A stretch of 64,000 bases of DNA from Escherichia coli. Its GTDB lineage: Bacteria; Pseudomonadota; Gammaproteobacteria; Enterobacterales; Enterobacteriaceae. Position numbers and translations under genes: made by a program. The stretch is taken from NCBI RefSeq assembly GCF_030384885.1, contig NZ_CP128613.1; one strand, written 5' to 3'. This document shows positions 55,736-59,588 of the stretch, in pieces (positions within the stretch are counted from its first letter, which is position 1; each line of letters opens with the position of its first letter). The notes beneath the pieces are model-generated. The model did not search any database and had not been told where the DNA came from. It was given only the letters and a program-made list of their open reading frames with translations.

Positions 55736-55842
55736 AAACGACTGGTATCGCTTTTCGCCATATTTGTGTAACGAGAAAAGCCATGCAAATACTATAATTC
55801 GTATTTCTCTCAAAGAGAGTGAAGATAATCAGGAGGTCCAGG

Positions 55843-56640
55843 ATGGACATTCGACTATTAGCAACGCTATGGTTATGGAATATCTCCCCTCGATTAGTCG
55901 TTATCGTCACGACCATTGCCTTCTCTTCCTGCTCGTGGGCTCGACTCACTCCCTGTAACAGTAAATCCGATATTGTTTGCCTGCAGTTGCGTGCGCAGCA
56001 AGGTAAATCATCGGATCAATACGATCTTGCATGGATATATCTAAAAGGGGATGGTGTAACGCCTAAAGATGATAAAAAAGCGCTGTACTGGTTTCGTAAA
56101 GCTGCAGAGAATGGTATGGCGGGAGCGCAGTATCGTCTTGGACGCCGTTATTATTCAGGTGATGGGGTGACATAAAATTATAAAGAAGCTTTTAACTGGT
56201 TTATGAAAGCTTCCGGGCGGGAAAATTCCTGGGGAATAGCCGCCGCACGCTACATGGTTGGGGTAATGTATTATCGTGGGCAGGGGGTTGAAAAGAATTA
56301 TACTCATTCTTTTTCCTGGTTTATGAAGTCGCTGAACGGGGCAGGTCGAGAGAAAGCAAGTAGGGCTTGCTACTTTATCGGTTCACAATATCTCAGTGGT
56401 CATGGCGTTACGCAAAACAACGACCTTGCCGTTGCCTGGTTTTATCTTGCAGCAAAATTAGGTTTGCCAGAGGCAATAGAGTATATATCGGGAATAGAAA
56501 AGCAATTCTCAGCGGAAATGCTCAAGCCCGCAAGAATCGAAGCGAACAGAATTAATGCCAAACATTATCTTGTACAGATACCTTTCCCGGAGTTATTGGC
56601 AGAGTCTGCGGCGGAAGTTGTAGTGAAGGGGGCAAAATGA
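55843..56640 (+). pseudogene. Sel1-repeat (TPR-like) protein with N-terminal signal/lipoprotein-like segment, interrupted by an in-frame TAA at 56173..56175
   Basis: ATG at 55843 with AGGAGG 6 nt upstream. Four Sel1-type repeats (e.g. GDGVTPKDDKKALYWFRKAAENG; GQGVEKNYTHSFSWFMKS). The TAA falls where a repeat normally continues (GDGVT*NYKEAFNWFMKAS) and the downstream ORF 56203..56640 is in the same frame. Confidence 0.6.
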
Positions 56641-57437
56641 AAAAAAGCGTATTGGCGTTCTCAATGCTATTTTTTAGCTATGCTGTCTACGGGGGTAATA
56701 GTATAGTGCCTCCGGCGAAGTATATGTCTTCGGATGCACTACCTCTCCAGATTGTCTACCGTTTTGACGATCACCGTTATATCATTTTAACAGGTGAAAA
56801 GCGGCATTACGACGGTGTTGATTATTGTTCAGGTCAATACTGGTATACTGATACACAAAAAAATATATTTTCCCGTGTTGGCGATACGCGTCACAACAAA
56901 TGGGTTCCGGAATCCATTGGTTCACGTTCTGCAATCACTCCCTCATATGACAGTCCACTTCCTGAAAATATAAAGTTTATTCATGATTCTGAAAAGTATA
57001 TTTTTGTACCTCTGGGGGGCGATCCACATAAAAAAGATAAAAATGGACAACTGATTTATGAATACCATGAAGTGCAAATGTCATCCGATTATGGCGCGAC
57101 CTGGAAAGATATCAACTTATCGGTTGAACCCGCGACCAGTGATACGCGATTGATTTTTCATGAGGGCCAGCTATTTATTGATGATAAGGATGGGTTTTAT
57201 CTCAGTCAAATCCCGATGCATAGTTTTTTTATGTATTATTATGATTATCACAGTCAGAATAATGATGTTAATCTGCCCAAAAATGTACCAGTCATTAAAA
57301 ACTATCGCGGTTGGGATCACATGCAGTGTTCAGAAAATGCAGAATTATCTGTAGAAGAGGCGGAACGTTTTCAACAAGATCGCCAAAGAAGTTGGGATTC
57401 CTGGGGCCGAAAAGGTGATGAAAAAAACTATAAGTAA
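56637..57437 (+). CDS. Hypothetical secreted protein (signal peptide; Asp-box/BNR-like SxDxGxTW motif)
   Basis: 266 aa; MKKSVLAFSMLFFSYAVYG signal peptide; SSDYGATW motif; ATGA overlap with upstream Sel1 gene suggests translational coupling; AT-rich composition. Confidence 0.6.
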   Translation: MKKSVLAFSMLFFSYAVYGGNSIVPPAKYMSSDALPLQIVYRFDDHRYIILTGEKRHYDGVDYCSGQYWYTDTQKNIFSRVGDTRHNKWVPESIGSRSAITPSYDSPLPENIKFIHDSEKYIFVPLGGDPHKKDKNGQLIYEYHEVQMSSDYGATWKDINLSVEPATSDTRLIFHEGQLFIDDKDGFYLSQIPMHSFFMYYYDYHSQNNDVNLPKNVPVIKNYRGWDHMQCSENAELSVEEAERFQQDRQRSWDSWGRKGDEKNYK

Positions 57438-57471
57438 TGTCAGTAATGCATCAGCTTAGTCTGGATTGAAC

Positions 57472-58137
57472 TTATAAATTACCTTCAATCATGATATTCT
57501 GATATTTGTTTAAGAGCGGTTTCATCCACTCAATAACATACTTAATGAATTCTGCATATTCGGTATTTGTTTGTGCCTTAGCTAACCATTGTTCAATTAT
57601 CTTTGCGCATTCATCTGAGGTAAATTCATTCCAGCTTGTGTAATCAAAAAATGTTTCACCATTGGCTAAAGGGTATAGTGACTTAATAGCCGGGGATAGT
57701 ATTTCAAAATCGCACTCATAAATAAAAAGACTAGCAACATTGTAATCCCATCCACCGTTAGGTTCCTCCTTGTAAGGATAGATAGAACAACCAATACGTC
57801 CATCACTACGGCGATGTTTTTTACGCAGAAAAATACGATGGCTTTTTTCGTATGCGTCAGTGTAATAATCGGGAACAGGTTGACTAAGAGCTGCACTGAA
57901 TGCTGTCAAAAATTTATCCCGTTCTTGTGGATGCATTTCCCGGTTGCATTGATAATTGATATTTATGTAATTATCTGTCCAGGAAATGTTACACATGTGA
58001 TTTTTGCTATTTACACAAAGTTCTGAGTTGGTAATGACTTCATTTATTTGCTGTATGCCCCAGTATTCACGGAAGAGCTCAAGTATTCTGATTTGTTGTT
58101 CTGCAATGCATATTGTTGTGTTGGTTGTGATTATCAT
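57472..58137 (-). CDS. Hypothetical protein, 221 aa, no recognisable motif
   Basis: Uninterrupted ORF on reverse strand 59 bp downstream of the 417-aa gene; AT-rich; weak RBS. Confidence 0.45.
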   Translation of the reverse strand: MIITTNTTICIAEQQIRILELFREYWGIQQINEVITNSELCVNSKNHMCNISWTDNYININYQCNREMHPQERDKFLTAFSAALSQPVPDYYTDAYEKSHRIFLRKKHRRSDGRIGCSIYPYKEEPNGGWDYNVASLFIYECDFEILSPAIKSLYPLANGETFFDYTSWNEFTSDECAKIIEQWLAKAQTNTEYAEFIKYVIEWMKPLLNKYQNIMIEGNL

Positions 58138-58196
58138 TTTAGTTATTTTGCTTCATTTCCAGATTTAAAAAGACATATCTTTCACTATTATTGCAG

Positions 58197-59450
58197 TTAA
58201 GACTGCTGATAAGACGTTGCCGTTGTCCGGCACTCCGGGCAGATAAACGCGTAAATCATCCCTTCGCCATATTGTTCAATATCGGCATAATCCAGTTGCG
58301 CAAGAAACATCATTGTGTGGGAACATTGCGGACAGAGAGGATATTCCGCGTCCTGAATCCAGGTTGGATGCCCGCCAAGTTGCGAGAAAGAGACAGGTAA
58401 AAATGGGTCTGCGGCAAATAACGGTGACCTAAGGTTTCCCTGTCTCATGCTGTTTACAGGGAGTCGACGCCATTCCGATACATCATCCGGCAGCCAGGCA
58501 GGCGGTGCAGACAAATGAGCGTTACCCCGTGAGTCTATGTAACCGAAAATGGTGCTATAGGCGGTGCAACATTCACACGTCACGACGCGAAACCTGCCTT
58601 TATCGCTAAGACCCGTTGCCTTCAGGTCAACGTCGAAAAGATTTGTTAGGGGCAATGCGCAATTTGGACAGGTATCGCTGCGTTCATCAACAACACGCAA
58701 AGCTTCGCAACACCCGGTGCTTTTCATCTCCAGATGAAAACAGTGAGGAAAATAGAGATTACGTCTCTGCCCTTCAGCGGTTAACTCCCAACCGGCCTCA
58801 TGCACATATTCTTCTGGCGCGATGTAAAGTGAACTGCGCCACAGCGGCGGGTTATTGCGCCAGTAGGCAAAACGTTCAACAACAACGTCATCCCCAATCC
58901 ATGCCAGACATTGCAGAATACAATTTCTGTTTTCTGCATCATCCTCAACCCGTTCTAACAGCGTATCGCGAACATCCGCTGGGGCGCGGTGGAAAGGCAG
59001 AGGAGAATAAGCGTCTAAATCATCATAAGAGATCCACTCTCGTAAATATGCATCCAGATTTGCCTGGGTAAACGCCGCCAGACAAAGACAAATCTCCTGA
59101 GCGTGTTCATATTCACCAGACGCAAAGCGTTCTGTGGCGCAATCAGCCATCAGCTGCGCTTGATCGGCAGTCAGTTGTTGATACAGGGCATCGGTGGGAA
59201 CGGGGCAGGGAGTCCAGTCGATTAACGCATCGAATTTCCGTGGCTGGTGAACTAATTTCAGCATGGCAATCGGATCGCTTAGCCCAGCAAACACATTCAC
59301 GGTCTTTTTATTTTTCCTGATATATTCATCGTGCTCACGCTGCTGTTGTGCCTGAACGCAGGGCATACAGTATCCGTCAGTACGCGCAGCGGTTTCCGGA
59401 AGAATGGTTGATGTACAAGCGGGGCTTTTACAGGGAATACGGTGAGTCAT
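58197..59450 (-). CDS. Hypothetical cysteine-rich protein with C-terminal DUF1963 (YwqG-like) domain
   Basis: 417 aa; ATG with AGGAGC 7 nt upstream; C-terminus LGGHPTWIQ...CPQCSHTMMFLAQLD...GEGMIYAFICPEC resembles the DUF1963 signature (GGxPxWxQ ... GDxGxLYFFxC) as I recall it; several additional CxxC pairs. Confidence 0.6.
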   Translation of the reverse strand: MTHRIPCKSPACTSTILPETAARTDGYCMPCVQAQQQREHDEYIRKNKKTVNVFAGLSDPIAMLKLVHQPRKFDALIDWTPCPVPTDALYQQLTADQAQLMADCATERFASGEYEHAQEICLCLAAFTQANLDAYLREWISYDDLDAYSPLPFHRAPADVRDTLLERVEDDAENRNCILQCLAWIGDDVVVERFAYWRNNPPLWRSSLYIAPEEYVHEAGWELTAEGQRRNLYFPHCFHLEMKSTGCCEALRVVDERSDTCPNCALPLTNLFDVDLKATGLSDKGRFRVVTCECCTAYSTIFGYIDSRGNAHLSAPPAWLPDDVSEWRRLPVNSMRQGNLRSPLFAADPFLPVSFSQLGGHPTWIQDAEYPLCPQCSHTMMFLAQLDYADIEQYGEGMIYAFICPECRTTATSYQQS

Positions 59451-59588
59451 AGAGGCGCTCCTTGCCTGAGGATATTAAGTCGAAAGAGATTATTATTAGA
59501 TATTAGGGTGTCACTATGGCACACAAATTAAAACAGCATTAATTTTATGCCACCAACCGAGGGTTATTTTTCTTTTATTTTCATGATA

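Follow-up and report, generated by a model that had tools for sequence, protein, structure and literature searches.

A putative orphan Sel1-Tli3 immunity module and a probable ancestral hemF neighbor at a variable eutR-hemF junction in Escherichia coli

Tli3, the immunity protein against type VI secretion system (T6SS) phospholipases of the Tle3 family, resides in the periplasm or at the outer membrane and binds directly to Tle3 (PMC6560169). The structure of the crystallized complex shows a loop of Tli3 inserted into the catalytic crevice of Tle3, and the protein Tli3-AIEC is an outer-membrane lipoprotein (PMC9860674). Proteins built of Sel1-like repeats (SLRs) can also be T6SS immunity proteins, such as Sel1E of Klebsiella pneumoniae, which neutralizes VgrG4 (PMC7108748). 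Enteric bacteria can also carry orphan immunity islets, for example SAIDI-1 of Salmonella Typhi (PMC7400221). Orphan immunity homologs sit away from effectors, and their relatives in other bacteria follow T6SS toxins (PMC7400221, PMC12247911). In this study, we analyzed a 64-kb stretch of Escherichia coli DNA (hereafter the window), in which a Sel1-repeat gene, a tli3-family gene, a gene for a 221-amino-acid (aa) protein (orf221), and a DUF1963/TYPP (YwqG-like) gene lie between the convergent genes eutR and hemF, at 55736-59588. The reading that we favor, and hold to be moderately probable, is that these genes are an orphan Sel1-Tli3 immunity module, an old neighbor of hemF (the DUF1963 gene), and orf221.

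The tli3-family gene (56637-57437, + strand) encodes a protein of 266 aa that matched the Pfam family Tli3 (PF24316) over residues 36-162 with an E value of 1.2e-15. Tli3-AIEC (LF82_434, PDB 8BOZ chain B) and Pseudomonas aeruginosa PA0261 are members of the same Pfam family, to which RefSeq naming assigns the identical protein too. The window protein is similar in size to known Tli3 (266 vs. 274 aa), and by eye it would carry an N-terminal export signal. We found that it has four motifs in common with Tli3 proteins encoded next to Tle3 (QVVYRFDDHRY, CxGxxWYTDTQ, SxDYGxTW, and VKNYxGWDHMQC). In an alignment with the Tli3 proteins of contig L016 (described below) and of Serratia and Enterobacter, the latter two encoded directly after vgrG-tle3, 31 columns were invariant, among them those of WYTDTQ, SxDYGxTW, and WxHMxC; the Asp-box-like motif SSDYGATW of the window protein is thus conserved across its family. 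The gene was intact in all three lineages compared, namely the window, E. coli 2017-02-2CC, and Escherichia albertii, and its ratio of nonsynonymous to synonymous divergence (dN/dS) against E. albertii was 0.13. A preliminary description of this DNA had held that none of the four products had an established function, which no longer stands for this gene, the Tli3 family being characterized (PMC9860674, PMC6560169).

The same pair of genes was found inside a Tle3 cassette. On contig L016, the gene order is Tle3 (722 aa, with the lipase motif AHSQG), Tli3 (232 aa), Sel1 (290 aa), a second Tli3 (265 aa), and PAAR, and the Sel1-Tli3 pair occurs there without DUF1963 or orf221. Its Sel1 and second Tli3 genes overlap by the same 4 bp as the window pair, in which the ATG of tli3 overlaps the Sel1 stop codon as ATGA, an arrangement of translational coupling. 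The window and L016 proteins were 41% identical for Sel1 and 45-47% identical for Tli3. The GC content of the L016 pair (3935-5604) was 36-39%, compared with about 50% for tle3 and the first tli3, and this far more AT-rich composition suggests that the pair is a mobile two-gene cassette that was added later. The window itself contains no Tle3, VgrG, or PAAR gene, and the neighbors are eutR and orf221; in this respect the locus differs from the known Tli3 systems, and the window tli3 is therefore an orphan with no tle3 nearby within the 64 kb. Based on the Tli3 family membership, the L016 cassette, and the lack of a toxin gene in the window, we read 55843-57437 as a candidate orphan Sel1-Tli3 immunity module.

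In mechanistic terms, the Sel1-tli3 unit would represent, in orphan form, a pair of immunity genes found elsewhere downstream of a Tle3-family T6SS phospholipase. Its products would be exported to the periplasm, and the Tli3-like protein, by analogy with the characterized Tli3 proteins, would bind the Tle3 that a competitor delivers and obstruct its catalytic crevice, thereby protecting a cell that does not make this toxin itself. If the orphan Tli3 is active, a divergent Escherichia lineage and E. albertii would resist a class of Tle3 lipases that typical E. coli cannot, and the locus would offer a modest but testable case of enteric bacteria acquiring interbacterial immunity. The likeness to SAIDI-1 and to the acquired interbacterial defense clusters of Bacteroidales lies in an immunity homolog situated away from any effector. 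In contrast to these, neither an array nor a mobile-element context is present at this locus, which holds one two-gene module beside unrelated genes. The preliminary description had suspected a role in competition or defense from both the Sel1 repeats and the YwqG-like domain; the suspicion holds up for the Sel1-Tli3 pair, considering the Tli3 homolog and the occurrence of the pair inside a Tle3 cassette, but not for the YwqG-like domain, for which no toxin context was found.

Several points weigh against the orphan-module reading. The window Tli3-like protein appears only distantly related to both experimentally tested Tli3 proteins: a phmmer search with it against PDB gave no match, and the link to the crystallized Tli3-AIEC (8BOZ_B), which we count in favor of the membership, was a match of a profile of the aligned Tli3 sequences at only E 0.003, over 43 residues; sequence similarity between the two is very low. 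The export signals were assessed by eye only. That the toxin is lacking elsewhere in the host genome is a presumption from DNA-level searches with two tle3 types only, in which the tle3-tli3 genes of L016 and Enterobacter had no match in 5,426 E. coli genomes. The pair in L016 is second, behind another Tli3, and may be an orphan there too; the Sel1-Tli3 pair was never seen as the first gene after the toxin. Sel1 is broken in two lineages, so the module may be decaying rather than in use. Finally, the roles of DUF1963 and orf221 are ones that we infer. Besides its low similarity, the window protein differs from known Tli3 in an additional C-terminal tail, in the translational coupling to a Sel1 gene, and in its N-terminus, MKKSVLAFSMLFFSYAVYG/GN, which by eye resembles a Sec-type signal and lacks the lipobox cysteine that would mark a lipoprotein such as Tli3-AIEC. 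Its close relatives are few, amounting to four clusters among 5.8 billion proteins.

As a side observation on Tle3 cassettes, those of Serratia and Enterobacter have between one and three Tli3 paralogs in tandem between tle3 and PAAR, with three copies each in contigs L013 and L015, and a single complete copy and a 48-aa fragment in L014. These tandem paralogs are immunity arrays, with a truncated copy in L014. A further possibility is that Sel1-Tli3 could be a bipartite immunity unit, in which the lipoprotein-like Sel1 partner could act as a co-immunity factor; alternatively, Sel1 could protect against a second toxin, for example a VgrG DUF2345 domain. Such a unit could circulate as a mobile cassette, residing now at Tle3 loci and now at orphan sites.

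The Sel1-repeat gene (55843-56640, + strand) was recognized from SLR similarity and from its translation, which has a single internal stop. The in-frame TAA at 56173-56175 splits it into pieces of 110 and 145 codons, with ORF remnants at 55843-56175 and 56203-56640, so that of the two convergent units of four genes given in the preliminary description the layout was retained but an intact Sel1 gene was not. The TAA codon reads AAA in both E. albertii and 2017-02-2CC. The latter has instead a 1-bp deletion at the equivalent of about 56288 (about 4930 of its contig, L001), ~115 bp downstream of the nonsense site, so that Sel1 was inactivated twice, independently, by AAA>TAA in the window and by a frameshift in 2017-02-2CC. 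With Sel1 reduced to a pseudogene in this strain, at most the Tli3 half of the proposed module would be functional. By eye, the Sel1 N-terminus has a hydrophobic, signal-like segment, and NCBIfam gave only generic SLR matches. SLR immunity proteins against PldB/Tle5b are known as PA5086-5088 in P. aeruginosa. The window Sel1 resembles Sel1E and PA5086-5088 as a small, putatively exported SLR protein with a homolog inside a T6SS effector cassette (L016), but it is a pseudogene outside any cassette, and the similarity is that of generic SLRs only.

The two Sel1 mutations bring in the explanation that the AT-rich genes, Sel1, tli3, and orf221, are nonfunctional relics heading for deletion. It fits with these independent inactivations, with the loss of the region from nearly all E. 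coli, with an internal stop in the DUF1963 gene of strain EC42405, and with a dN/dS that is relaxed relative to the flanks (0.13-0.48 vs. 0.03-0.11). Nevertheless, tli3, orf221, and DUF1963 were intact in all three lineages, and dN/dS stayed well below 1 over a substantial divergence (synonymous divergence, dS, 0.29-0.61), so we consider complete decay unlikely and retain the orphan-module reading for tli3.

We then considered how this DNA came to lie between eutR and hemF. The left flank, eutR (54683-55735, + strand), is a core gene by its ORF, by RefSeq annotation of the identical strain, and by its product, which matches the amino-acid sequence of E. coli EutR at 99% identity; the right flank, hemF (59589-60488, - strand), is a core gene by ORF and annotation. 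The extra DNA is exactly 55736-59588, bounded by the stop codons of eutR (55735) and hemF (59589), and in the K-12 derivative BW25113 the stops of the two convergent genes are only 5 bp apart. The ~3.85 kb of extra DNA between convergent 3' ends, as first described, is thereby confirmed, and comparison of the junction among genomes confirmed its strain variability too. The full insert was present in 2 of 5,426 complete E. coli genomes, 2013C-4282 (99.9%) and 2017-02-2CC (97%); 26 further genomes had only the DUF1963 gene, with other cargo, and all the remainder (>99% of genomes) had an empty junction. The interval 30000-50000 of the window was 100% identical to 2013C-4282, but its identity to nearly every other complete E. 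coli genome was only ~95.3%, which argues that the window comes from a divergent, cryptic-clade-like lineage. The same layout was found in E. albertii CP117580, where hemF, DUF1963, orf221, Tli3, an intact 287-aa Sel1, and eutR follow each other.

Base composition along the region was heterogeneous. GC content was 35-41% across about 56.6-58.2 kb, about 50% in the DUF1963 gene, and 50-59% in the flanks; GC content at third codon positions was 0.32 for orf221, 0.35 for tli3, 0.42 for Sel1, and 0.47 for DUF1963, compared with 0.58-0.59 for eutR and hemF. These profiles bore out the AT-rich stretch of foreign-like composition that had been seen by eye, as well as the core-like GC of the 417-aa DUF1963 protein's gene and hence a mosaic region; the atypical composition is confined to 56.6-58.2 kb. 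Scans for promoters and terminators in the region gave nothing beyond shuffled expectation, and an Rfam search returned no family, with one subthreshold match taken as chance.

Such a composition, together with an empty junction in >99% of E. coli and a Sel1-Tli3 pair that is AT-rich in L016 as well, is what would be expected if the whole 3.85 kb were a recent horizontal islet inserted into a previously empty junction. However, no integrase, transposase, insertion sequence element, or tRNA was found among the ORFs and features of the region, and a repeat search gave no meaningful flanking repeats. Moreover, DUF1963 is near-core in GC and syntenic with hemF in five genera, and E. albertii has the same layout at a synonymous divergence like that of the flanks: dS against E. 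albertii was 0.61 for tli3 and 0.55 for DUF1963, and 0.55 for hemF and 0.64 for eutR. Acquisition of the AT-rich part is quite possible, but it would be ancient. We therefore assign a recent insertion of the whole region a low probability, and the earlier wording of a ~3.85-kb insertion is not supported. The layout in common with E. albertii at flank-like synonymous divergence argues for an arrangement of long standing in the genus, one that the lineage leading to E. coli sensu stricto has deleted; loss there would explain the pattern better than gain, and acquisition of the AT-rich genes probably preceded the divergence of these lineages. Thus, DNA that appears inserted with K-12 as the reference can in fact be ancestral and have been lost by E. 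coli. Current understanding is not overturned by this locus, which is an ordinary variable one.

The DUF1963 gene (58197-59450, - strand) encodes a cysteine-rich protein of 417 aa, identified by a weak DUF1963 match in the family search, by alignment motifs, and by its AlphaFold model (predicted local distance difference test, pLDDT, 92). Its architecture consists of an N-terminal CxxxxC...CxxC zinc ribbon, whose cysteines C7, C12, C28, and C31 were invariant in the family alignment, a helical solenoid of the HEAT/ARM type, and a C-terminal beta domain of two repeats. TYPP proteins are said by Burroughs and Aravind to be marked by GGxP, a conserved Q, and paired CxxC; the window protein has two repeats with GGxP, the conserved Q, CxxC pairs, and a YwqG-like fold. 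Compared with other members of the YwqG/DUF1963/TYPP superfamily (Bacillus subtilis YwqG, PDB 1PV5; eukaryotic TSR4/PDCD2), it adds the zinc ribbon and the HEAT-like solenoid, reaching ~420 aa. To our knowledge, no function has been assigned to any bacterial YwqG/DUF1963/TYPP member. A phmmer search against PDB gave no match for the DUF1963 protein, and NCBIfam had nothing for the Tli3-like, orf221, or DUF1963 proteins. The full-length family of ~420 aa is represented, at 39-93% identity, in Escherichia, Citrobacter, Kluyvera, Salmonella Paratyphi A, Klebsiella, Chitinimonas, Acidobacteriota, Clostridium, and many Paenibacillus.

Every enterobacterial copy examined was directly downstream of amiA-hemF in the same orientation. 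This synteny was found in Escherichia (including E. albertii), Citrobacter, Klebsiella, Superficieibacter, and an uncultured enterobacterium, and a 55-aa DUF1963 remnant lies downstream of amiA-hemF on contig L011. Together with a dS like that of the flanks, the amiA-hemF-DUF1963 synteny argues that the gene is an ancestral neighbor of hemF that was lost from most E. coli, and not cargo of an insertion. It would then be an old resident behind amiA-hemF that was kept in basal Escherichia lineages, sporadically retained elsewhere, and deleted in most E. coli. Its architecture hints at a stand-alone cytoplasmic protein-binding or chaperone-like factor. Neither 80 DUF1963 loci nor about 60 Paenibacillus species showed conserved neighbors, the hemF synteny being found only in enterics, and a role as an immunity protein or operon member was rejected on the lack of a conserved neighbor in the 80 loci. 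Two further copies deserve mention. In Citrobacter sp. S2-9, a 349-aa ankyrin-repeat gene (L005, 4784-5833) lies between hemF and DUF1963, and the EC42405 copy (L004, 4000-5262) is annotated in RefSeq as a pseudogene with an internal stop, which fits ongoing loss in E. coli.

It may still be asked whether the four genes form one functional islet of defense or competition, with cytoplasmic DUF1963 and orf221 and periplasmic Sel1 and Tli3, as the single undescribed system of the preliminary description would require. The four-gene layout has been kept in the window lineage, 2017-02-2CC, and E. albertii, and purifying selection acts on all four genes (dN/dS 0.13-0.26 against E. albertii). But every component was found without the others, by which the idea is largely refuted; DUF1963, for instance, occurs without the rest in 4 other genera as well as in the 26 genomes of E. 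coli noted above, and has no conserved neighbor in about 60 Paenibacillus species. In addition, the two halves differ in composition, none of the four proteins matched any PADLOC family, and Sel1 was inactivated twice, independently. One common islet is therefore very improbable. The independent occurrence of the parts argues instead that the region is a composite of three unrelated parts with separate histories, as the orphan-module reading has it.

The third part, orf221 (57472-58137, - strand), is an AT-rich ORF whose product had no signal peptide and no match in Pfam. Against PDB sequences, phmmer gave marginal matches only, the best (E 0.004) to protein tyrosine phosphatases; a kinship with phosphatases was taken as chance, neither fold search having listed one. 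The AlphaFold2 model had a pLDDT of 93, and fold searching gave generic TBP-like/helix-grip matches only; all matches in AFDB50 were uncharacterized proteins, among which the C-terminal domain (~125 aa) stands alone in Firmicutes, Bacteroidota, and Acinetobacter. The family is tiny (26 matches among 1.84 billion cluster representatives), and across it Pfam found a UBA-like N-terminus in one distant member only. The eight close homologs are all at the hemF-eutR junction, to which the gene is confined within Escherichia. It was intact in all three lineages, with a dN/dS against E. albertii of 0.25, indicating purifying selection. We regard it as a putative cytoplasmic two-domain protein that would travel with this junction.

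Distant orf221 homologs follow a UDG gene in Listeria (L018) and lie between polC and rimP in a Firmicute (L019). In Dysgonomonas (L020, 7307-9982), the homolog overlaps the end of an RNA-ligase (PF09414) gene, upstream of an AAA_33/KTI12-like kinase, and this locus resembles an RNA-repair operon. No toxin genes were found beside the homologs at these three loci. The sporadic spread across phyla had prompted the idea of an immunity protein, which was unsupported, as the distant homologs lie in housekeeping or RNA-repair-like contexts. The zinc-ribbon-HEAT-TYPP protein and orf221 could be a cytoplasmic pair at the hemF junction with a nucleic-acid- or stress-related role. This reading and that of a bipartite Sel1-Tli3 immunity unit are, taken jointly, rather doubtful. 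In any case, two well-conserved families with confident structure models, the ~420-aa zinc-ribbon-HEAT-TYPP protein and orf221, are flagged here.

The eutR-hemF junction is a multi-allelic hotspot. In the inspected genomes of the minority with DUF1963 only, a 105-aa YpfK-family gene follows DUF1963 in place of orf221. The junction of E2348/69 additionally carries a 1,149-aa SNF2/DUF3670 protein and an orf221 homolog, and orf221 occurs with the SNF2 gene instead of tli3 in other Escherichia genomes. This 1,149-aa SNF2-related protein (DUF8276, DUF3670, SNF2, and Helicase_C) was observed at the junction in several of them (L003, 5361-8810, which is E2348/69; L010, 8669-12118; L011, 8802-12245), where its gene is convergent with, and abuts, the orf221 homolog.

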